DNA of 64,000 bases. Source: an uncultured Gemmatimonadales bacterium (lineage in GTDB: Bacteria; Gemmatimonadota; Gemmatimonadetes; Gemmatimonadales; GWC2-71-9). The translations under genes were made by a program, and so were the position numbers. The notes below the pieces were generated by a model. That model ran no database searches, was not told where the DNA came from, and worked only from the letters and a program-made list of their open reading frames with translations. The stretch covers positions 1,856,001-1,920,000 of the forward strand of contig CAVZZO010000001.1 in the NCBI GenBank assembly GCA_963779755.1, given 5' to 3'. Every line of letters starts with the position of its first letter. The stretch's first letter is position 1. This document shows, piece by piece, positions 42,613-57,154 of this stretch.

Positions 42613-43047
42613 ATGGCCATGGGGCTGGGGTCCGGCGGCCGGCTGGGGCGGGGCAATCTGCCTCTCAACGCCGATATCAACGTCACCTCGCTGGTGGATG
42701 TGGCGTTCGTGCTGCTCATCATCTTCATGATCACCGCGCCCATCATGCAGGGTGGGGTGGACGTCCAGCTGCCCCGCGCCGAGGCGCGACCCCTCACCGC
42801 CAAGGAGGGGATGGTCATCTCGGTCGACCAGCAGGGGCGCATTTTCATCGACGAGACGCCGGTGAGCTATCGGGACTTCCGGGTCACCTTCGCGTCCATT
42901 GTGGCGACCCGCAAACCCACCGGGGTCTACCTCCGCGCCGACACCCGCGTGCCCTACGGCGACGTGGTCCGGGTGCTGGCGGTGATCCGGGCCGCCGGGG
43001 TCAACGACGTGGGGCTGGTGGCCGAAGAGGAGCAGCGCAGCCCATGA
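42613..43047 (+). CDS. tolR: TolR (ExbD/TolR family)
   Basis: DINVTSLVDVAFVLLIIFMITAP, VYLRAD..VPYG. Confidence 0.9.
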   Translation: MAMGLGSGGRLGRGNLPLNADINVTSLVDVAFVLLIIFMITAPIMQGGVDVQLPRAEARPLTAKEGMVISVDQQGRIFIDETPVSYRDFRVTFASIVATRKPTGVYLRADTRVPYGDVVRVLAVIRAAGVNDVGLVAEEEQRSP

Positions 43048-43739
43048 GCAGGCGGCGGGCCCGGCGGAGCACCCATCGAAGCGGGACCATGATCGGGCTC
43101 GCCGGCACCCTGCTGGTCCACGGGGCGTTCATCGGGCTGTTGCTGCTGGGGGTCAGGCCGCCGAAGGCCCTGCCGCCGGTCTACGCCGTCCAGCTGGTGG
43201 CCGCGCCGGCCACCCCGCAGGTCCGGAAGGCGCCGGAGGCGGTGGAGCGGCCCGCCGAGCCGCCCCCGGCGCCGGTCAAGACCAGGCCCGCCAAACAGCC
43301 GGCGGTGCCCACGCCGAAGCCGGCGCCGGTCACGCCGCCCAAGAAGAAAGAACCGGCGCCGCGCGCCAAACCCACCACGCAGACGCCGGCGCCCGGGGAG
43401 ACGCCGGGCACCGGCACGGACGTCGCCAACATCAAGACGCCGGGCCTGACGTTTCCCTACCCCGATTATCTTGCCAATATCGTCGCGCAGATCTACAAGC
43501 GGTGGGAGCGGCCGGTCAGCGCGGCCCCGCTGCGTGCCGAAGTCAGTTTCCTGATTCTGAAGGATGGTACCGTGCGGGATATCCGGTTCGTGCAGCGCTC
43601 CGGCAACTTCTCGTTTGATCTGGGTGCCCAGGGGGCGATCGAGGCCGCGGGCAACGCCCAGGTCTTCGGCCCGCTGCCGGACGGGTACGAGGCCGATGTG
43701 CTGCCGGTGAGTTTTTTCTTTACCCCGCGCCAGCGGTGA
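43044..43739 (+). CDS. tolA: TolA/TonB-like energy transducer
   Basis: N-terminal TM with His (TLLVHGAF), Pro/Lys linker, C-terminal domain with SGN..FD..A; lies between tolR and tolB. Confidence 0.78.
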   Translation: MSRRRARRSTHRSGTMIGLAGTLLVHGAFIGLLLLGVRPPKALPPVYAVQLVAAPATPQVRKAPEAVERPAEPPPAPVKTRPAKQPAVPTPKPAPVTPPKKKEPAPRAKPTTQTPAPGETPGTGTDVANIKTPGLTFPYPDYLANIVAQIYKRWERPVSAAPLRAEVSFLILKDGTVRDIRFVQRSGNFSFDLGAQGAIEAAGNAQVFGPLPDGYEADVLPVSFFFTPRQR

Positions 43740-45043
43740 GGCGCCTCCTCGCCACCGCCCTCCTGTGCGTGGGCGCCGCGCTGCCGGTCCATGCCCAGGA
43801 CACCAGCGGCGTACGCGGTGTCCGGCTGGGCATCACCTACAGCCCGGGCGTGCGTCCCAGCCTGGTGGTGCTCCCCGCGTCCGGGCTCGACTCGGTCCGG
43901 GCCATTCTCTCGCGCGATCTCGACTACAGCGACCGCTTCGAGGTCGTGGTGCTGCCCCCGGGCGAGGTCTCCCGGGTGGGCAAAGGCAACGCCATCAATT
44001 ACAAGCTCTACCGCACCCTGGGCGCGCAGTACGGAGTCGAGGTCGTGCCGGCACCGGTGGGAGTGACCGTGCGGCTGCACGATCTGGACGCCGGCGCCGT
44101 CCGGGTGGAGCAGGCGGTGGCGCTCTCGGCCGTGGGCTCACCCGATTTCCGTATGCAGGTGCACCAACTCGCCGACCAGGTGGTGCGCTGGATTACCGGC
44201 GTTCCCGGCATCGCCGCCAGCCGGCTGCTCTATGTGGTCGAGGGGCGGGTCTGGCGGGTGGACAGCGACGGCTATGATCCCGGGATCGTCACCGGCGGCG
44301 CCGGCCAGGCGCTCTCGCCGGCCTGGGAGCCCGGGGGCCGCCGGTTCGCCTATACCCGCTTCGAGGACGGCCGCGGGAGCATCGTGCTGCAGGATATCCT
44401 GGGCGGCGGGAGCAGCGTGCTGCCGGGCACCACGCGCGAACTCAACATCACGCCGGCCTTCAGCCCGGACGGCCACTGGCTCGCCTGGGCCCGGGTGGGC
44501 GAGGACGGAACCGACATTTACAAGGAGAACGTCGCCCCGGGCGGGGGGCCGCAGCGCTTGACCGCCGGGCGCTTCGCGGATAACCTAAGCCCGACGTACT
44601 CGCCCGACGGGCGGCGCATTGCCTTCGTTTCCACCCGCGCCGGCCTGCCGCAGATCTACGTCATGGGCGCCGATGGAACCGACCAGGAGCTGCTCGCCCC
44701 GTTCGATTACGGCGTGACCGGCAGCTCCAATGCCCCCGAATGGTCGCCCGATGGAGCCAGCGTCGTGTTTCATCGCGAGGTCGACGGCACACCCCAGATT
44801 TTCGTGCTTGACGTGGGCAGTCACCGCGTCCGGCAGTTGACGTCCTCGGGGCGGAATACCGACCCGACCTGGGCGCCGGACGGCCGGCATGTCGCTTATG
44901 TTTCGGACCGCAGCGGCCGCCGGCAGTTGTGGGTGATCGACATCGAAACCGGGCGGATCCGGCAGATTCAGACGGCTGGCAGTGTTCGCCTTCCGGCGTG
45001 GTCTCCCCGTCTGGGCGGGACCGCGGCTCTCACAAACCCCTGA
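43736..45043 (+). CDS. tolB: TolB beta-propeller protein
   Basis: Signal peptide, DLDYSDRF, repeated PD40 motifs (SPAW, PAFSPDG, PTYSPDG, PEWSPDG). Confidence 0.92.
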   Translation: MRRLLATALLCVGAALPVHAQDTSGVRGVRLGITYSPGVRPSLVVLPASGLDSVRAILSRDLDYSDRFEVVVLPPGEVSRVGKGNAINYKLYRTLGAQYGVEVVPAPVGVTVRLHDLDAGAVRVEQAVALSAVGSPDFRMQVHQLADQVVRWITGVPGIAASRLLYVVEGRVWRVDSDGYDPGIVTGGAGQALSPAWEPGGRRFAYTRFEDGRGSIVLQDILGGGSSVLPGTTRELNITPAFSPDGHWLAWARVGEDGTDIYKENVAPGGGPQRLTAGRFADNLSPTYSPDGRRIAFVSTRAGLPQIYVMGADGTDQELLAPFDYGVTGSSNAPEWSPDGASVVFHREVDGTPQIFVLDVGSHRVRQLTSSGRNTDPTWAPDGRHVAYVSDRSGRRQLWVIDIETGRIRQIQTAGSVRLPAWSPRLGGTAALTNP

Positions 45044-45059
45044 TGCCGAAGGAGTGACG

Positions 45060-45659
45060 ATGCGCGTCTTCACGCTGTTCGCCCTGGGAGCCGCCGTGCT
45101 GGTCGGCGCCTGCGGCGGCAAGCCTCAGCCCGAGCCTCCCCAGCCGACGCCGACGCCGGTCGACAGTACGGCCATCAAGGCGCGGCAGGACTCCATCGCC
45201 CGGGCCGATTCCATCGCCCGTGCCCGCCAGGACTCCATCGACGCGGCCCGGCGCGCCGCGGCCGAGGCCGAGCGTAGCCGCCAGGCGCTGATGGCGGACA
45301 TGCAGGCCATGATCCACTTCGACTACGACAAGTCGGATATCAAGCCCGACGATCAGGCCACCCTGGACCGCAAGGCGGCCATCCTGAGCGCCAATCCGGA
45401 CCTGAAGATCCGGATCAGCGGCCACGCCGACGAGCGCGGCAGCGACGAATACAACCTGGCGCTGGGCAACCGCCGCGCCCTGGCCGCCAAGCGCTATCTG
45501 GTGAACCAGGGGATCAGCGCCGACCGGATCGACGTGGTCTCGTTCGGCGAGGAGCGTCCCATCGCCCAGGGCCACGACGAATCGGCCTGGTCGCAGAACC
45601 GGCGTGACGAATTCGAGATCACCGCCGGCGGGTCAACCCTGAAGGCGCCGGGCAGCTGA
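45060..45659 (+). CDS. pal: Peptidoglycan-associated lipoprotein Pal
   Basis: Lipobox VGAC, IHFDYDKS, GHADERGSDEYNLALG.RRA, SFGEERP, NRR.E. Confidence 0.95.
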   Translation: MRVFTLFALGAAVLVGACGGKPQPEPPQPTPTPVDSTAIKARQDSIARADSIARARQDSIDAARRAAAEAERSRQALMADMQAMIHFDYDKSDIKPDDQATLDRKAAILSANPDLKIRISGHADERGSDEYNLALGNRRALAAKRYLVNQGISADRIDVVSFGEERPIAQGHDESAWSQNRRDEFEITAGGSTLKAPGS

Positions 45660-45663
45660 GTCC

Positions 45664-46482
45664 TTGCCCCGGCTTACTCCCGTTCTTGCGATCCTGGCGG
45701 GCGGCGTCCTTGCGGGCTGCGCCCTGAAGAGCGACGTCCGCCGGGTCGAAGAACAACTGGCCGCCTTTCGTGCCGAGTCCGCCCGGGCGAACTCGGCACA
45801 GGCGGCGCAGCTGGCCGAGCTCATCCGGTTTCAGCAGCGCATCATGGATTCCCTCGGCACCGAGATCGCTGCCACTCGCCAGACGGTGCGGGCCATGCAG
45901 GGCAGCGTGGCCGGCGATCTCTACAACATCCAGCAGCAGCTGGTGCAGGTCCAGGAACTCACCGGGCAGAGCCAGCGCCGGCTGAACGAGATGCGCGCCC
46001 AGCTGGAAACCAGGGGCGAGCAGCTCAATCAGACCATGAGCGATACCGCGCAGCCCGCCGGCGCGGGAGCGGGGCCGGAGCCGGCCGCCGCGGGCGGTCC
46101 CCCTCCGGCGCCGGAAGAGCAGATGTACCAGGCGTCTCTGCAGCAGCTTCGGCAGGGCAGCGTGAGCACCGCGCGGCTTGGCTTCCGGCAGCTGCTGCGG
46201 AGCTACCCCACCGGCAGCCACGCGGCCGATGCGCTGTATTTCATCGGCGAGAGCTATGCGGGCGACACCCCCGATTCGGCCGCGGCGTACTATCAGCAGG
46301 TCGTGAACAGCTATCCCTCCACCCCCCGGGCGCCGAGCGCGCTCTACAAGCTCGGGTTGCTGGCCGAGCAGCAGCACGACCTCCCGACCGCACGGTCCGT
46401 CTACCAGCGGGTGGTGCAGAAATACCCGCGGTCCGACGAGGCCGCCCTGGCCCGGGACAAGCTGAAGACGCTGGGTCCGTAG
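45664..46482 (+). CDS. cpoB: Cell division coordinator CpoB (YbgF), lipoprotein-type N-terminus
   Basis: Lipobox LAGC, coiled coil, TPRs ADALYFIGESY and APSALYKLG; follows pal. Confidence 0.85.
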   Translation: MPRLTPVLAILAGGVLAGCALKSDVRRVEEQLAAFRAESARANSAQAAQLAELIRFQQRIMDSLGTEIAATRQTVRAMQGSVAGDLYNIQQQLVQVQELTGQSQRRLNEMRAQLETRGEQLNQTMSDTAQPAGAGAGPEPAAAGGPPPAPEEQMYQASLQQLRQGSVSTARLGFRQLLRSYPTGSHAADALYFIGESYAGDTPDSAAAYYQQVVNSYPSTPRAPSALYKLGLLAEQQHDLPTARSVYQRVVQKYPRSDEAALARDKLKTLGP

Positions 46483-46500
46483 GTCCGGCGCGGTTCGCCC

Positions 46501-49500
46501 ATGGCAATACGCACGGGGGAAATGCCGTTCCTCGACCACCTCGAGGAGCTCCGGCATCGCCTGCTCAAGGCCCTCTCGGCGGTGATCATCGGGTTTGCGG
46601 TCGGCCTCTGGATCGTCCAGCGCTTTCAGCTGGTCTCCCTGCTCAAGAAGCCGATCGAGAGTTATCTCCCCGGCGGCAAGCTCACCGTGCTCAGCCCGAC
46701 CGAGCCGGTGATGATCGTGCTCAAGCTGAGCTTCATCGTGGGCCTGGTATTCGCCTCCCCGGTGATCATCTACCAGACCTGGGCGTTTCTTTCGCCCGCC
46801 CTGTACGACAAGGAACGCAAGGCGGTGGTCCCGGCCCTGTTCGTGGGGCTGGTGCTCTTCCTGACCGGGGGCATCCTGGGCTACGTCTTCATCGTGCCCC
46901 AGGCGTTGCGGGTGCTGTTCAGCTTCCAGAGCGAAGCCCTGGCACCCTTCATCACCTACGACAATTACTTCGGCTTCGTCCTCCAGATTGTCCTGGCGCT
47001 GGGGATCTCCTTCGAGTTGCCCCTCGTCATCATCGTGCTGGCGGCGATCGGGCTGATCACGCCGCCGGCCCTGAGCCGCTTCCGGCGGTTCTTCGTGGTG
47101 CTGGCCTGCATCGCCGGCGCCATACTCTCTCCCGGCACCGACATCATCTCGATGATCATGATGACGGTGCCGCTGCTTTTCCTGTATGAGATCGGCTACG
47201 CGGGCACGGTGCTGATCTACCGCCGCCGGCGGCGCGCCGAGGCGCGCGCCGCGGCGGGCGAGCCGGGCAGCGGCGCCGGCCGGACCATGCTCATCCTGTT
47301 CTGCCTGCTGGCCCTGGGGGCGGGGGCGGCCCGGGCCCAGGTCCCCAAGCGGCCGCCCAAGCCCCTGAAGGGCGATACCACCCAGGTCCAGCCGGGGGCC
47401 AACGCTCCCCTGGGGGTCACCCGGGCCGGGGCCGATACGGGACAACCCCTCCCCCAGGCCATGGACACCGCGACCGCCCGCCGGCTCGGCCTCCCCACCG
47501 CCCCCACCCGCTCCTTCCCCGACCCCGATTCCCTGCTGCAGAGCCTGGTGGCGCTGCCGGGCTATACCAGCATCCGGTTCGCCTCCGACTCCGCCACGCT
47601 CTTGGCCGGCGAACGGCGCATCCTGCTCACGGGGCACGGCATCACCAGGCGGGGAACCAGCGTGCTGCAGGCCGATGCCATCGCGTTCGACGACAGTACC
47701 TGCACGCTGCGGGCGCGCGGCAGCCCGCAGCTGTTCGACCAGAGCTCGGTCCTGGTGGCCGACACCATCCGCTACAACACCTGCGAACGGCGCGCCCTGG
47801 TGGCCGGCGCGCTGACCAATTTCGACCAGAACGGCGCCACCTGGTTTCTCCGGGGCAACCTGGCGCAGGACTCCAGTTCCAGCCGGCTCTTCGCCTCCAG
47901 CGGCAACATCACCAGCTGCGATCTCCCCGTTCCGCACTACCACTTCTCGGCCAGGGAGGTGAAGTGGATTTCGCAGACCGTGCTGGTCGCCCGGCCGGCC
48001 GTGCTGTACGTGCGCGATGTCCCGGTGCTGTGGCTGCCGTTCATCTTCCAGGATGCGCGGCCGGGCCGGCGCTCCGGCATTCTCATTCCCCAGTTCGGCA
48101 TCAACGATATCGTCCGGCCCAATCCGGGGTATAACCGGCAGGTCACCAACCTGGGGTATTACTGGGCGCCGAACGACTATCTGGACCTGACGGCCCGGGT
48201 GGACTGGTACGCCAACCGGTACGTCCAGTTCGGGGTGACGGGGAACTACCGCTGGCTGGACCGGTTCATCTCCGGCGGGGTGAGCTACAGCCGGCAGCAC
48301 GAGAGCGGGGGAGGCGGGGCGACCGCCCTGCGCTGGACCCACCGGCAGAATTTCAACGTCAGCACCACGCTCAACCTGAACCTGAACTACATCAGCAATT
48401 CGTCGATCGTCAGCCGGAACGCGATCGACCCGCTGCTGACCACCCAGCAGATTACCAGCGCCGTCAACTTCACCAAGCGGTTCGCCTGGGGCAACGTGAC
48501 TCTGGGCGGCAACCGGCGGCAGAGCCTCACCGACAAGAGCGCCAGCACCCAGTTTCCCGCGTTTACCATCAGCCCCAAGCCGCTCGACCTGGGGCGTGAC
48601 ATCACCTGGTCGCCGGCGCTCACCGTGACCAACGATCTGACCAGCAACAGCCCCCAGCCCGACCTGCTGGTGGCGAACGCGGTAGGCGGCGTGGATACTC
48701 TGAAGGTCACCTCGGACAGCCGGGTGACCGCGGTGAGCTTCGATACCCCGCTCCGGCTGGGCGGGTTCAACTGGCGCAACAGCTTCAGCATGAGCGACCG
48801 GAAGGTTACCGGGCTCCAGTCCGTCGCGGCGGTGAAGGTGGACAATCCCGCCACGGCCGATCCGAACGACTCGCTGCTGGTGAGCCGGGTCTACGACGGC
48901 GACTTTTCGACCAGCCTCAACTGGGACACCGGCATCAACCTGCCGCCGATGTTCCGCGGCAGCTGGAAGCTGCAGCCCAGCGTCGGCATCGAGAACTCCA
49001 CCTCCCAGGGGCCCTTCGGCCTGCGCAACCGGAATACCGGCGGGAGCTACGTGTTCCAGGGGAAGCGGCTGTCGTTCGGGGTGAGCAGCTCGCCCACCAT
49101 CTTCGGGTTCTTCCCCGGCATCGGGCCGCTGCAGCGCATCCGGCACAGCGTCTCCCCGGTCATTACCTGGAATTACCGCCCGGCCGCCAACATCCCCGAG
49201 GCCTTTGCCCGGGCCCTGGCCGGGCCGGGCATCGCGCCCCAGCTGCGCAGCGATGCGGTCCAGACCGCCAGCATCAGCCTGTCGCAGAATTTCGAGGGCA
49301 AGCTGAAGGCGGCCCCGGGCGACACGACCGCCGTCGACCAGCCGGCGAGAAAGATCCGGCTGCTCAGCATCTCGACCAGCGCTCTCACCTATGACTTCGA
49401 GCAGGCCAAGAAGCCCGGCCGGACCGGTTGGACCACCAGCACCCTCTCCAACACGTTCCAGAGCGATCTGCTGCCGGGGTTCAACCTGAGCCTCACCCAC

Positions 49501-50082
49501 AGCCTGTGGGAGGGGACCGTGGGCACCGACTCCGCGAAGTTCAAGCCGTTTCTGCAGAGTGTCAGCGCCAGCTTCGCCCTGAGCGGAGGCACCGTCCAGT
49601 CGCTGCTCTCGATCTTCGGATTGGGCAGCAAGTCATCGGCGGCCCAGACGGGGAAGAACCGCGAGCCGCCGGCGTCCTATATCGCCGACGCGGGTCAGCG
49701 GCGCACCGGTTCGTTCTACAGCTCCGACCAGGTGAACAGCATCCGCAGCGGCGCAGGCTTCAGCGCGAACTTCAACTTTTCCCTGTCCCGGACCCGCCCC
49801 GTTCCGGGCCTGCCGCCCCAGAAGAGCCGCCAGAGCCTGGGGTTCAGCACCAGCTTCCAGCCGACCCCCCTCTGGCAGGTCTCCTGGACCTCCCAGTACA
49901 ACATCACCGACGGCCGCTTCGAGTCCCAGGTGGTGCGGCTGATCCGGGACATGCACGACTGGCGCGCCGGGTTCAACTTCGTCAAGAACGCCAACGGCAA
50001 TTTCGCCTTCTTCTTCAGTATCTACCTGGTAGACCTGCCGGACGTGAAGTTCGACTACGACCAGACGACGATTAAACAGTAG
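46501..50082 (+). CDS. tatC: TatC - internal signal peptide - LptD-like outer-membrane protein fusion
   Basis: aa 1-~240 TatC (EMPFLDHLEELR.RL, YQTWAFLSPALY..E, GISFELP, ILSPG.D, LYEIG); aa 263-279 hydrophobic segment ending ARA-Q; aa 280-1193 LptD-like (TSCDLPVPHYHF.A..VK, VLYVRDVPVLWLPF, RRSGILIP, LGYYWA, RDMHDW); no in-frame stop. Confidence 0.85.
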   Translation: MAIRTGEMPFLDHLEELRHRLLKALSAVIIGFAVGLWIVQRFQLVSLLKKPIESYLPGGKLTVLSPTEPVMIVLKLSFIVGLVFASPVIIYQTWAFLSPALYDKERKAVVPALFVGLVLFLTGGILGYVFIVPQALRVLFSFQSEALAPFITYDNYFGFVLQIVLALGISFELPLVIIVLAAIGLITPPALSRFRRFFVVLACIAGAILSPGTDIISMIMMTVPLLFLYEIGYAGTVLIYRRRRRAEARAAAGEPGSGAGRTMLILFCLLALGAGAARAQVPKRPPKPLKGDTTQVQPGANAPLGVTRAGADTGQPLPQAMDTATARRLGLPTAPTRSFPDPDSLLQSLVALPGYTSIRFASDSATLLAGERRILLTGHGITRRGTSVLQADAIAFDDSTCTLRARGSPQLFDQSSVLVADTIRYNTCERRALVAGALTNFDQNGATWFLRGNLAQDSSSSRLFASSGNITSCDLPVPHYHFSAREVKWISQTVLVARPAVLYVRDVPVLWLPFIFQDARPGRRSGILIPQFGINDIVRPNPGYNRQVTNLGYYWAPNDYLDLTARVDWYANRYVQFGVTGNYRWLDRFISGGVSYSRQHESGGGGATALRWTHRQNFNVSTTLNLNLNYISNSSIVSRNAIDPLLTTQQITSAVNFTKRFAWGNVTLGGNRRQSLTDKSASTQFPAFTISPKPLDLGRDITWSPALTVTNDLTSNSPQPDLLVANAVGGVDTLKVTSDSRVTAVSFDTPLRLGGFNWRNSFSMSDRKVTGLQSVAAVKVDNPATADPNDSLLVSRVYDGDFSTSLNWDTGINLPPMFRGSWKLQPSVGIENSTSQGPFGLRNRNTGGSYVFQGKRLSFGVSSSPTIFGFFPGIGPLQRIRHSVSPVITWNYRPAANIPEAFARALAGPGIAPQLRSDAVQTASISLSQNFEGKLKAAPGDTTAVDQPARKIRLLSISTSALTYDFEQAKKPGRTGWTTSTLSNTFQSDLLPGFNLSLTHSLWEGTVGTDSAKFKPFLQSVSASFALSGGTVQSLLSIFGLGSKSSAAQTGKNREPPASYIADAGQRRTGSFYSSDQVNSIRSGAGFSANFNFSLSRTRPVPGLPPQKSRQSLGFSTSFQPTPLWQVSWTSQYNITDGRFESQVVRLIRDMHDWRAGFNFVKNANGNFAFFFSIYLVDLPDVKFDYDQTTIKQ

Positions 50083-50139
50083 GAAGCAGGGACCGGGAAC
50101 CAGGAACCAGGGATTCCTGATTCCTGGTTCCTTGTCCCT
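50081..50139. repeat. Inverted heptamer tandem-repeat element (AGGAACC / GGTTCCT) starting in the stop codon of the TatC-LptD gene
   Basis: AGGAAGC AGGGACC GGGAACC AGGAACC AGG GATTCCT GATTCCT GGTTCCT TGTCCCT. Confidence 0.85.
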
Positions 50140-50213
50140 TGCCAGTGACAGGCGGAATGGCCGACGCCGGATCTCAAACGGTTGACGGGTAATAACTTCC
50201 GCCTAGGCCTCCG

Positions 50214-50229
50214 TGGCACATCTCGTGCT
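50214..50229 (+). promoter_or_regulatory. Candidate sigma54 promoter for the lipoprotein gene
   Basis: TGGCACATCTCGTGCT = TGGCAC, GG-N10-GC. Confidence 0.55.
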
Positions 50230-50262
50230 GATCTCGCGGACACTCACCCACTGGAGCCGACC

Positions 50263-51390
50263 ATGCGTCTGATCTGGCCGCTCGCGATCCTCGGGCTGGT
50301 GACCGCAGGGTGCCGCGAGACCCTCGGGAGCAACGGCGCCGCCGTGGCGCCTCCCTCCAATCTGATCTACACTGTGGAACCGAGCGGTACGCCGGGCAGC
50401 CCGTCCGGTATTCTGCTCCACTGGGACTACGATAACAGCTCGGCGCTCGCGGTCTGGCACGTGTATTCCCGGGCCAACACCGCCGACGCCTACGGCCTGC
50501 GCGGCTCCACCACCAGCAATACGTTCCACGATAATGGGGTGCCGCACCTGCAGTATTACGTCACCGCCGAGGACGATCAGGGCATCGAGACCGGCCCCAG
50601 TAATGTGGTGACCGTGGATGAGCGGCTGGCGCTGGACGCGCCCGCGTGGCTCAACAGCACCTCGCTCAACGGAGCCATCGCCCTCGACTGGGCCGACAAT
50701 GCCTTCCAGGCCGAGCCCCAGGGCTTCAAGATCTATCGGGTCTACAGTACCCCCTACGATCTGGATCAGGGCACCTGCGGCGCGACCTGGGTACTGGAAG
50801 GCACCACGGTATCCCCCGAGTTCGTCGCGGGCGCGCTGCCCAACGGAGTGCCGCGCTGCTTCGGCGTTTCCGCCGAGAGCATCGAGGGCTTCGAGAGCCT
50901 GTGGTCGCCGATTCGCGATGACACCCCGCGGCCCGACGCGCGGAACGTGCTCATCTATGCACGACAGACGCAGGATGCCGGCAGCGGGTTCCGCTTCTGG
51001 CGCGATCTCAACAACGACCAGCAGAGCCAGCCCGGGGAGCTGGGCCTGATCAGCTCGGGCTCGGCGAGTGATATCGATTTCTCGGTGGAACGCGATGTCT
51101 CCGGCGCTTTATTCCTGACGCCGGTGCGGACCGGCACGGCCGTCCAGGCGTACGGCAGCATCCCGGTCGAGGACCTTACCGGGGTGGATTTCGCACCGCT
51201 CACCGGTTACTCCACGCTGCCGATCCAGGCGGTGCCGGGCTGGGGCTACGTCTTCGAGATGGACGAAGGGGACGGCTTCTACCGGTACGGGGCGGTTCGC
51301 GTCACCCACGTGGGCCAGGATTATCTGATCCTCGACTGGGCGTACCAGACCGACCCGGGCAATCCGGAGCTGGTGCGGGGCGGCAGGTAG
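50263..51390 (+). CDS. Hypothetical lipoprotein with two FN3-like repeats and a distinct C-terminal beta domain
   Basis: MRLIWPLAILGLVTAGC lipobox; APPSNL...LHWD...YSR...YYVTAED..G.E...SN and APAWL...LDW...YRVYS...FGVSA...G.ES. Confidence 0.7.
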   Translation: MRLIWPLAILGLVTAGCRETLGSNGAAVAPPSNLIYTVEPSGTPGSPSGILLHWDYDNSSALAVWHVYSRANTADAYGLRGSTTSNTFHDNGVPHLQYYVTAEDDQGIETGPSNVVTVDERLALDAPAWLNSTSLNGAIALDWADNAFQAEPQGFKIYRVYSTPYDLDQGTCGATWVLEGTTVSPEFVAGALPNGVPRCFGVSAESIEGFESLWSPIRDDTPRPDARNVLIYARQTQDAGSGFRFWRDLNNDQQSQPGELGLISSGSASDIDFSVERDVSGALFLTPVRTGTAVQAYGSIPVEDLTGVDFAPLTGYSTLPIQAVPGWGYVFEMDEGDGFYRYGAVRVTHVGQDYLILDWAYQTDPGNPELVRGGR

Positions 51391-51419
51391 CCCCGGGGAG
51401 CAGGGCCCGGACCTGACAG

Positions 51420-51483
51420 GACCGCGGGGGCGACGCATGCGTCGCCCCCGCGGTCTTTCCCTTTTCCTCTTTCCCTCTTCCCC
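51420..51483. repeat. Perfect 36-bp REP-like palindrome followed by degenerate TTTCCCT heptamers; may also act as terminator
   Basis: GACCGCGGGGGCGACGCA|TGCGTCGCCCCCGCGGTC (51420-51455), then TTTCCCT TTTCCTC TTTCCCT CTTCCCC. Confidence 0.85.
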
Positions 51484-51497
51484 GTAGTTTCCCGCGC

Positions 51498-53027
51498 ATG
51501 CCCGACACCCTTACGCTGGACGGCCGCAGTCTCACCGTCGAGGCCACGGCGCGGTTTGCCCGGACGGCCGATCTTCAGCTCCGGCTCGATCCGGCGGCCC
51601 TGGAGACGCTGGCGGCGAGCCGCCGGCGGGTGGAAGCGGCCATCGCCGGCGGGCAGGCGATCTACGGCATCAACACCGGATTCGGCAAGCTGGCGAATGT
51701 CCGGATCGACCCCGAACGGCTGGACGACCTCCAGGCCAACCTGATTCGCAGCCATGCCGCGGGCGTGGGCGATCCCCTCCCGCCCGACGTGGTGCGGGCC
51801 GTCATGCTGCTTCGGGCCAACGTGCTCCTGCGGCCCACCAGCGGCGTCAGGCCGGCCTTGGTGGAAGCGCTGGCCGCTCTGCTGCAGAGTGGGATTGTTC
51901 CCCGGGTGCCGGAGCAGGGAAGTGTGGGGGCGAGCGGCGACCTGGCTCCGCTGGCCCACATAGCCCAGGTGCTGATGGGCGAGGGCCAGGTGCTGGGGCC
52001 CGCGGGAGCGGAACCCGCCGCCGCCGCACTGGCGGGGGCCGGGCTCGCCCCCTACCGCCTCGCTCCCAAGGAAGGCCTGGCGTTCATCAATGGCACCCAG
52101 GCGCAAACCGCCCTGCTGGCGCTCCTGGTGTACGACAGCGAGGTCCTCTGGCGCACGGCAGTGGCCGCCGCCGCCCTCAGCCTGGAGGCGCTCCGGGGCA
52201 CGCCGGTGCCGCTCGACCCGCGCATTCACCAGGCCCGTCCCCATCCCGGCCAGATCCAGACGGCGGCCCTGATGCGGCGCCTGCTGGAAGGCAGTGAGAT
52301 TCGCGAATCCCACCGCGAGAACGACCCCAGAGTGCAGGACGCCTACAGCCTGCGATGTACCCCGCAGGTGCTGGGTGCGGTGGCCGACGCCATCCGCTTT
52401 GCCCGGGAGACGGTGGCCGTCGAGTTGAATGCCTCCACCGACAACCCTCTGGTCTTCGAGGGCGGCGACGTGCTCTCGGGCGGCAACTTCCACGGCCAGC
52501 CGGTGGCCCAGGCGCTCGATTTTCTGGGGGTAGCACTCACCACGCTCCAGGCGATCGCCGAGCGGCGGGTGGAGCGGCTGGTCAATCCCGATCTCTCTCA
52601 GGGGCTGCCCGCCTTCCTCACGGCCGATCCCGGTCTGCGCTCCGGGTTCATGATGGTCCAGATCACCGCCGCCTCGCTGGTGGCGGAGTCGCGGACGCTG
52701 GGGCATCCGGCCAGCACCGGCTCCATTCCGACCGACGCCAACCAGGAGGACTTCGTTCCCATGGGAATGGCGGCGGCGTGGAAGGTGCGGCGGATCCTGC
52801 AGAATGCGCGGCGCGTCGTGGCGGCCGAACTGCTCTGCGGCGCCCAGGGGCTGGAATACCTGCGCCCGCTCCAGCCGGGCCGGGGGGTGGGCCGGCTGTA
52901 CGCCCGGATCCGCGGCGAGGCGGGCATCCCGCCGCTGACCGACGATCGTCCGCCGGCGCCGGATCTGGAACGGCTGGCCGCAGCGCTGGCGGGCGGTCTC
53001 CTCGATCCCGGCCCCGGGGAGGGGTGA
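51498..53027 (+). CDS. hutH: Histidine ammonia-lyase
   Basis: YGINTGFG, NLIRSHAAGVG, MIO motif GSVGASGDLAPL, KEGLAFINGT, VQDAYSLRC, ANQEDFV.MG. Confidence 0.95.
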   Translation: MPDTLTLDGRSLTVEATARFARTADLQLRLDPAALETLAASRRRVEAAIAGGQAIYGINTGFGKLANVRIDPERLDDLQANLIRSHAAGVGDPLPPDVVRAVMLLRANVLLRPTSGVRPALVEALAALLQSGIVPRVPEQGSVGASGDLAPLAHIAQVLMGEGQVLGPAGAEPAAAALAGAGLAPYRLAPKEGLAFINGTQAQTALLALLVYDSEVLWRTAVAAAALSLEALRGTPVPLDPRIHQARPHPGQIQTAALMRRLLEGSEIRESHRENDPRVQDAYSLRCTPQVLGAVADAIRFARETVAVELNASTDNPLVFEGGDVLSGGNFHGQPVAQALDFLGVALTTLQAIAERRVERLVNPDLSQGLPAFLTADPGLRSGFMMVQITAASLVAESRTLGHPASTGSIPTDANQEDFVPMGMAAAWKVRRILQNARRVVAAELLCGAQGLEYLRPLQPGRGVGRLYARIRGEAGIPPLTDDRPPAPDLERLAAALAGGLLDPGPGEG

Positions 53028-56899: not shown

Positions 56900-57154
56900 A
56901 TGTTCGGGAATCTGGGGTTCGGCGAAATCATGATGATCCTGGTGGTGCTGCTGCTCGTATTCGGGGCGCGGCGACTGCCGGAAATCGGGTCGTCGTTCGG
57001 GAAAGGCATCCGGGAGTTCAAGCGCAGCCTGACCGATACGCAGGATGCCATCGCCGGCCGTCCGAAGCAGGAGGATGGGGCCAGTCAGAACCGGCAGCTG
57101 GACGGGCCGCCGGCCCCGCCTTCCGGGGGAGAGCCCAAGCGGCTGTCCCAGTGA
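56900..57154 (+). CDS. tatA: Twin-arginine translocase TatA/E subunit
   Basis: LG..EI..ILVVLLLVFGARRLPEIGSSFGKGIREFK; GAGGAG SD. Confidence 0.95.
   Translation: MFGNLGFGEIMMILVVLLLVFGARRLPEIGSSFGKGIREFKRSLTDTQDAIAGRPKQEDGASQNRQLDGPPAPPSGGEPKRLSQ

Follow-up and report, generated by a model that had tools for sequence, protein, structure and literature searches.

A conserved TatC-LptD gene fusion in Gemmatimonadales with a predicted internal cleavable signal peptide: a candidate bacterial polyprotein

Introduction

To our knowledge, bacterial polyproteins that are split at an internal signal peptide are very rare. What may be the closest precedent is FbcH of Bradyrhizobium japonicum, a cytochrome b/cytochrome c1 precursor that is cut into two functional proteins (reportedly described by Thony-Meyer, James and Hennecke in PNAS in 1991). 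The subject of the present analysis is a single open reading frame (ORF) in a stretch of 64,000 nucleotides (nt; ‘the window’) from the genome of an uncultured Gemmatimonadales bacterium (GenBank assembly GCA_963779755.1, contig CAVZZO010000001.1), in which a sequence for TatC, a component of the twin-arginine translocation (Tat) machine, runs without a stop codon into a sequence for LptD, a component of the lipopolysaccharide transport (Lpt) machine. The two are joined by a segment with the look of a cleavable signal peptide, and the whole probably constitutes an obligate polyprotein, exported through the topology of TatC and cut by signal peptidase I. Coordinates are given throughout as positions within the window, amino acid (aa) numbers are those of the fused protein, and the window’s own genome is called G000.

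FbcH resembles this locus in that a polytopic inner-membrane protein, an internal signal peptide and an exported protein are placed in one ORF (the topology being a prediction in the present case). In contrast to FbcH, whose products are two subunits of one complex in one membrane, the products expected here would serve two unrelated machines, Tat and Lpt, in two membranes; the exported part in the window is a 914-aa outer-membrane barrel; and processing is reported to have been shown experimentally for FbcH, whereas it is predicted for TatC-LptD.

A literature search on inner-membrane polyproteins with an internal signal peptide or signal peptidase processing returned no bacterial precedent. 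Nor, as far as could be found, does any bacterial polyprotein of this kind combine parts of distinct envelope machines that sit in different membranes. Descriptions of a TatC-LptD fusion were likewise not found among the titles and opening parts of abstracts that were searched, and a survey of TatC diversity (PMC3827258) holds zero occurrences of ‘fusion’, ‘fused’, ‘OstA’ or ‘LptD’.

One frame, two envelope proteins

The ORF listing and its translation give a single uninterrupted frame of 1193 codons plus stop on the plus strand, with an RRRRR...A-R-A/QVP junction, exactly as had been reported in a preliminary description made from the letters alone. No stop codon occurs until 50082, and 953 residues lie beyond aa 240, so that the TatC moiety is not a free-standing protein of ~250 residues. 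The parts of the frame are as follows:

46501..50082, plus strand: the whole fused tatC::lptD ORF, the frame that holds the sole TatC match and the sole LptD_2 match of the genome
46501..47220, plus strand: TatC moiety, aa 1-240, with six hydrophobic helices (from hidden Markov model (HMM), hydropathy, AlphaFold2 (AF2) and Foldseek)
47221..47235, plus strand: basic cluster RRRRR, aa 241-245, the cytoplasmic tail of TatC, apparently doubling as the n-region of the internal signal peptide
47236..47286, plus strand: short Ala/Gly-rich linker, aa 246-262 (up to T262), from reading of the sequence
47287..47337, plus strand: predicted internal signal-peptide core, aa 263-279, with ATG (M263), h-region MLILFCLLALGAGA and c-region A277-R278-A279 (hydropathy peak at aa 259-281)
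47338..47340, plus strand: Q280, with which mature LptD is predicted to begin (cut expected between nt 47337 and 47338)
47338..47565, plus strand: Pro-rich, predicted disordered spacer, aa 280-355, the N-terminus of mature LptD (low AF2 confidence to aa 316)
47566..48000, plus strand: predicted periplasmic beta-jellyroll of LptD, aa ~356-500 (AF2 strands and a weak NCBIfam LptD match)
48082..50079, plus strand: predicted outer-membrane beta-barrel of LptD, aa ~528-1193 (from PF19838, AF2 strands and Foldseek)

The LptD part that follows the predicted cut comprises 914 aa and begins Q280-V-P. The hydropathy profile displays six TatC peaks (aa 21-239), the extra segment at aa 259-281 and nothing helix-like past aa 300.

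Both halves that had been named in the preliminary description, a full TatC and an LptD-like C-terminal part, are borne out by HMM searches and by fold, and both families exceed their cut-offs. The Pfam model of TatC (PF00902) matches aa 12-224 over its entire length (profile positions 1-208 of 208, E 4.6e-60, 203.4 bits versus a cut-off of 25.1), and the NCBIfam model TIGR00945 (tatC) scores 199.8 bits versus a cut-off of 132.7. The C-terminal part is matched by LptD_2 (PF19838; E 1.3e-37, 130 bits versus a cut-off of 22.5), the Bacteroidota-type LptD family, while the Pfam models of classical LptD (PF04453) and of LptD_N (PF03968) have no match in the fused protein and the NCBIfam models of classical proteobacterial LptD give weak partial matches only (aa 375-536).

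An AF2 model was built from an alignment of 110 fused proteins (mean predicted local distance difference test score, pLDDT, 74.7; predicted template modelling score, pTM, 0.49). It places the TatC helices at a pLDDT of about 80-94, jellyroll strands at aa 358-497 and barrel strands at aa 528-1175 (mostly pLDDT 80-97), and leaves aa 250-316 without secondary structure at a pLDDT <50. When the model was compared with known structures using Foldseek, the top 15 matches were all LptD chains (one belongs to a deposited model of E. coli LptD, the other 14 to solved complexes of the LptDE type), with E values from 9e-19 (9kn3_A) to 3e-14 over about 900-970 aligned columns and a template modelling score (TM) of 0.57 for 7omm_A; the TatC structures 4b4a and 4hts rank next (TM 0.79-0.81, 39-40% identity).

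Set beside stand-alone TatC (4b4a, 4hts, 9dzz, 9e01), the window’s TatC thus shares the full HMM match and the six helices (TM 0.71-0.81, 32-40% identity), and by its family it would be oriented N-in/C-in. It differs in having no stop after its cytoplasmic tail, and the processed form is predicted to carry one more membrane segment at its C-terminus, with its end in the periplasm. With the LptD of LptDE complexes (9kn3, 4q35, 5iv9, 7omm) the C-terminal part shares the combination of a beta-jellyroll and a very large beta-barrel (Foldseek E 9e-19 to 1e-14), yet it is only 8-12% identical in sequence to the solved proteobacterial chains and lacks their PF04453 and PF03968 matches.

Conservation of the fusion

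Two samples of related genomes were compared. For the first, 40 relatives were taken and 30 loci fetched, of which 25 held both parts; in 18 of these 25 (the window’s own and 17 relatives) tatC and lptD are fused into a single stop-free frame, with full-length identities of 47-63%. Because the frame stays open across the junction in the loci of 17 relatives at that level of divergence, and with differing linker lengths, its openness is far beyond chance. In the second sample, of 201 genomes of the class, 31 of the 38 genomes from the window’s family (f1) yield a single junction-spanning match without internal stop, 26 of them full length (among these the unpublished genome G158) and five truncated, mostly at contig ends; the TAG in the G016 match proved on checking to be its terminal stop, and the G209 match also holds a TAG. 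Separate genes in all close relatives, which the preliminary description had given as grounds for abandoning the idea, are clearly not what these genomes contain.

Long TatC proteins of this kind, whose existence and phylogenetic placement the same description had proposed to examine, are abundant in a large protein collection: 8000 candidates were scored, 925 clusters reached E<=1e-10, and PF00902 and PF19838 are both found in 120/120 among the matches listed. Where the fused proteins carry a name, it is ‘TatC’ only, with metagenome-assembled genomes (MAGs) of Gemmatimonadales or Gemmatimonadota as the source. After clustering at 50%, six full-length representatives cover both halves, down to 36% identity (confirmed by Pfam on three), and the design of the junction is identical in all six. 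A cultured carrier was not found, and a related-locus search of genome contigs produced one locus, from a Gemmatimonadales MAG.

A sequencing or assembly error, in which a lost stop or an indel falsely joins two genes, was considered and rejected as having practically no chance of being correct: the comparative data, namely the same open frame in 17 other f1 genomes, the 925 protein clusters from several sources and two independent fusions in other families, already refute it. The TatC-LptD fusion is confirmed, at the level of sequence, as a genuine conserved gene fusion.

The fused frame also appears to be the sole source of both proteins. In G000 (4.23 Mb in four contigs, 97% complete) the fused frame holds the one TatC match and the one LptD_2 locus, and profile searches of the genome returned no other tatC, LptD_2 or classical LptD match, which answers the question, raised in the preliminary description, of a stand-alone tatC or lptD. 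The genome would thus need both products from the fused gene.

The predicted internal signal peptide and its cut site

A parser applied to 120 fused proteins (its pattern required Gln at position +1) recovered the same junction in 119: four to eight Lys/Arg residues after the sixth transmembrane helix (TM6), followed by 23-39 residues (median 31) leading to a small-x-small site. In these 119 proteins position -1 is occupied by Ala in 108, Ser in eight and Gly in three, position -3 by Ala in 82 (otherwise by V, T, G, L, S, I or F), position +2 by Val in 83 and position +3 by Pro in 99. A MAFFT alignment of 110 fused proteins provides independent confirmation, showing no variation at Q280 and a conservation of at least 90% at A279 and at P282. 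At DNA level, 24 to 47 aa separate the basic cluster from the cut site in 20 fused loci, always in frame.

The segment looks like a cleavable signal peptide, rather than one that has grown into a stable membrane anchor, because its uncharged h-core is as short as in the separate forms (median 14 in fused loci versus 13 in separate loci) and because Pro or Gly occurs at positions -4 to -8 in 108 of the 119 fused proteins. The correctly oriented arrangement of basic stretch, hydrophobic core and A-x-A site that had been proposed from the single sequence recurs, with its site conserved, among the fused proteins compared.

The invariant Gln fits a wider pattern in the genome. By a crude heuristic, Gln is the second commonest residue at +1 of predicted signal peptidase I sites in G000 (42/366 versus a background of 2.9%), which suggests a moderate ‘Q-rule’ like that of Bacteroidetes. 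In the consulted part of a published account of the Gln rule (PMC5837995), the rule is described for Bacteroidetes together with pyroglutamate formation, a continuum of values is reported for related phyla, and Gemmatimonadetes are absent. The signal peptide of the TolB-like protein encoded upstream (43736-45043) ends in ...VHA/QD.

Apparent loss of an independent start for LptD in the fused clade

In a start-codon survey of 20 fused loci at DNA level (18 of them f1), four (L017, L019, L020 and L024) have no ATG, GTG or TTG between the basic cluster and the cut site, and in nine no such codon would yield a presequence of 15 aa or more. A candidate start that is accompanied by a basic n-region is present in none of the 18 f1 loci, and was seen only in the independently fused L037 (TTG, MK...). 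At protein level, Met is absent from the presequence in 82 of 119 fused proteins. The lptD genes of separate-gene relatives, by comparison, have an ordinary start and signal peptides of the form M-(K/R)-h-region.

A basic cluster also follows TM6 in the stand-alone TatC of relatives (KRRAR in L021), and because these proteins end TM6 with KRRAR-type clusters the basic tail of TatC is taken to be ancestral. Thus, as far as can be read from these comparisons, the LptD signal peptide in the fused clade appears to have lost its own start and n-region and to use the basic tail of TatC in their place. This sets the window’s LptD apart from known LptD: its signal peptide is internal and, in many relatives, without a start codon or n-region of its own.

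Origin of the fusion and escape from it

Outside f1, all 20 loci examined from six other families of the class have tatC immediately before lptD in the same orientation; 18 of these loci carry separate genes and two are fused (L037 in f4 and L038 in f2). The adjacent separate pairs (L021, L027-L032, L034-L036, L039-L053) resemble the window in gene order, strand, small-x-small/Q site and Pro-rich N-terminal spacer, but they have a stop after tatC, often a different frame, and an lptD start with a basic n-region. In L021 (genome G040, of the sister family f3), at about nt 2305-2310 of the oriented locus, the tatC stop TAG runs directly into an in-frame GTG, the start of an lptD with an ordinary signal peptide. 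This is the likely precursor state, one point mutation away from the fused one: a tightly packed tatC-lptD pair probably became fused when the stop codon of tatC was lost.

An LptD tree of 46 rows (four rows shorter than 700 aa, L020, L024, L034 and L035, were dropped; L025, from an unpublished genome, has no assigned fused or separate state) places one fusion at the base of f1, where 16 of 21 rows are fused. The tree requires at least four changes between the fused and the adjacent-separate state: the f1 gain, a reversion in L029 and two independent gains.

Two f1 lineages nested among fused ones, G012 (L016) and G007 (L023), have left this arrangement altogether, with ybgF directly followed by lptD and the tatC moiety deleted; G128 (L065), a congener of G012, is still fused. 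The sole tatC of G012 and of G007 is unlinked, encodes a protein 42-43% identical to the window’s TatC, and groups in a 48-row tree with TatC of the f2 type (support 98) and not with that of f1. G035 (f2; L038, L064) combines its independent fusion with a stand-alone tatC, and the two TatC sequences are sisters (support 100) with 75% identity, which looks like a recent duplication of which one copy was fused to lptD. Since the lineages without the fused moiety carry a replacement tatC of different ancestry, these patterns fit a fused TatC that is functional and that would be lost only where another tatC copy is available.

In G012 the un-fused lptD (L016, about 1396-1550) has no ATG, GTG or TTG near its h-region, and the sole in-frame start is a GTG located 23 nt after the ybgF stop, giving a presequence of 52 aa. 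The stretch before this lptD was compared with tatC as a possible remnant of the tatC 5' end, left by an in-frame TatC deletion; the match is weak (15/17 nt, E 0.047) and is not claimed as such.

Proposed mechanism and alternatives

The reading that we regard as probable is that of an obligate polyprotein processed at an internal cleavable signal peptide, a candidate polyprotein of this design having been put forward in the preliminary description; the two domains, the conservation of the frame, the sole copies, the start and n-region lost in relatives and the retained small-x-small/Q pattern all argue for it, and from these we infer that this genome translates the frame as one chain, that the LptD part is exported through Sec and that the chain is cut. 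Translation would begin at the tatC start codon (46501), and TatC would insert its six helices in the inner membrane, leaving the RRRRR tail in the cytoplasm. The former LptD signal peptide, having lost its own n-region, would borrow that basic tail and enter the Sec translocon in N-in/C-out orientation, so that export of the LptD part, 914 residues long, begins. A cut by signal peptidase I after A-R-A279 would then release mature LptD (with N-terminal Gln280) for chaperone- and beta-barrel assembly machinery (BAM)-dependent assembly in the outer membrane, whereas the old signal peptide would stay on TatC and form a short seventh segment in the membrane. From then on each product would act by itself, TatC in the Tat and LptD in the Lpt machine. 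The fusion would be tolerated because the topology fits and because both proteins may be needed at low, similar levels.

Several considerations weigh against this reading. The fused genomes belong largely to one clade, so that their counts overstate independence, and the cut sites were set by our own regular expression and hydropathy heuristics, and the topology was derived from heuristics, from AlphaFold and from what is known of the families. In the c-region, a basic residue (mostly Arg at -4; R278 at -2 in the window) occurs in 53 of 119 fused proteins and in 8 of 15 parsed fused loci, as against only one of 21 parsed separate or unlinked loci, namely the secondarily un-fused G007 (counts that are not phylogenetically independent); such a residue could affect Sec export or cleavage. 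There are also indications that LptD may keep a start of its own. An in-frame ATG stands exactly at the beginning of the h-region in this genome (47287), and likewise in L018; in 11 of the 20 fused loci some ATG, GTG or TTG could start a presequence of 15 aa or more; Met directly follows the basic cluster in a subgroup of fused proteins (RRA-M-N...); and signal peptides without a basic n-region can still work. Some independent initiation at the internal start of this genome is therefore possible. Nor does the lack of a Shine-Dalgarno (SD) sequence speak against it. As stated in the preliminary description, no SD-like 4-mer is found at -17..-5 of the ATG at 47287, and that observation stands; the argument drawn from it does not, and was rejected, for the tatC start at 46501 lacks such a 4-mer as well, and in a crude ORF-based survey of the genome SD-like motifs occur at 14.6% of candidate starts versus 10.3% of internal controls. 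Translation initiation in G000 seems largely SD-independent, while the anti-SD tail of its 16S rRNA is canonical (CACCTCCTT; 3' end, contig C3, about 58.2 kb). The stronger proposition, that LptD is made mainly from ATG 47287 and that the read-through chain is minor, wasted or supplies only TatC, is nonetheless unlikely. Without a stop, ribosomes coming from tatC read through all of lptD, so that a polyprotein would be made in any case; the loci devoid of a canonical start, the failure of every f1 locus to offer one with a basic n-region, and the many presequences without Met all oppose it, as does the absence of a promoter-like site in the region (by consensus scan only).

It is a little less likely again that the chain stays uncut, with a permanent seventh helix and a Pro-rich spacer of ~75 residues that tethers LptD in the outer membrane to TatC in the inner membrane. 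An extended residue usually spans ~0.35 nm, and by our own estimate on this basis the disordered spacer (aa 280-355) that follows the hydrophobic segment could cross the periplasm; the basic c-region residue that is enriched in fused forms might hinder processing, and would, if the chain is uncut, be a device slowing or blocking signal peptidase. That the chain, or a regulated share of it, remains whole and forms a covalent trans-envelope link between two export machines is an improbable outcome. Spacer and small-x-small/Q site are present equally in the separate-gene relatives and so are not adaptations to tethering; the h-core has the shortness, and the -4 to -8 region the Pro or Gly, of a signal peptide; the invariant Q280 is most easily understood as a conserved mature N-terminus, in keeping with the moderate (and crudely estimated) preference for Gln at +1; and lineages that separate or delete tatC keep a working-looking LptD. 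The same c-region charge recalls the Sec-avoidance charge of Tat signals, and with several Arg residues, an h-region and an A-x-A site the junction has a superficial likeness to a Tat signal peptide, such that TatC might handle its own extension in cis, through Tat and not Sec. This possibility, which was raised in the preliminary description as TatC engaging its own RR-rich linker, gained no support and is very improbable: there is no S/T-R-R-x-F-L-K-type motif (Ala, Glu or Gly follows the Arg run), whereas candidate Tat substrates of the genome do carry SRRxFL-type motifs; the basic cluster is shared with stand-alone TatC of relatives; and a 914-aa outer-membrane barrel precursor must stay unfolded, which is the normal business of Sec.

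Genome context

The fusion lies downstream of tol-pal genes, and the order ybgF-tatC-lptD is also found in relatives. The neighbouring features are:

43736-45043, plus strand: TolB-like gene (Pfam PD40)
about 45060-45659, plus strand: Pal/OmpA-like gene (Pfam OmpA)
45664-46482, plus strand: YbgF/CpoB-like tetratricopeptide repeat (TPR) gene, ending 18 nt before tatC (Pfam TPR_6/YfiO)
50182-51390, plus strand: ORF directly after the fusion, with a lipoprotein-like N-terminus (...LVTAGC) and no Pfam match
51418..51457, plus strand: terminator-like hairpin of 18 pairs, after the ORF downstream of the fusion, the only strong one of the region
56912..57046, plus strand (G000:C1:1912912-1913046): tatA-type gene, one of two in the genome (PF02416, 58 bits)

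The hairpin is likely to mark the end of the transcription unit, and the ORF that precedes it may be co-transcribed with tatC::lptD. A scan with the consensus only found no sigma-70-like promoter in 43000-51500, junction included.

Elsewhere, G000 encodes partners of both machines. There are two tatA genes (PF02416), and of 19 motif hits about ten are convincing twin-arginine N-termini of the SRRxFL type; the genome also has one gene for signal peptidase I. LptE (PF04390, 41.7 bits) and LptF/G (PF03739, 225.8 and 211.8 bits) are located at other sites. The LptD_N/OstA model PF03968 matches nothing in G000, either in the predicted jellyroll or as LptA; the proteins of the periplasmic Lpt bridge may have diverged too far for this model to recognize them.

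Significance

The annotation of the fused genes names ‘TatC’ only, which makes it easy to record LptD as absent from these genomes. If the proposed reading is true, an entire family of soil Gemmatimonadales draws its sole TatC and its sole LptD from a single chain. LptD synthesis would be locked 1:1 to that of TatC, LptD would become the co-translationally targeted, SecA-driven cargo of a polytopic membrane protein, and mature TatC would keep a foreign seventh segment. The family would thus offer a natural test case in which Sec, signal peptidase I and BAM face a very large barrel precursor that is begun inside another membrane protein. It would also illustrate how a gene fusion can become irreversible, once start codon and n-region are lost, with escape only where another tatC is available.

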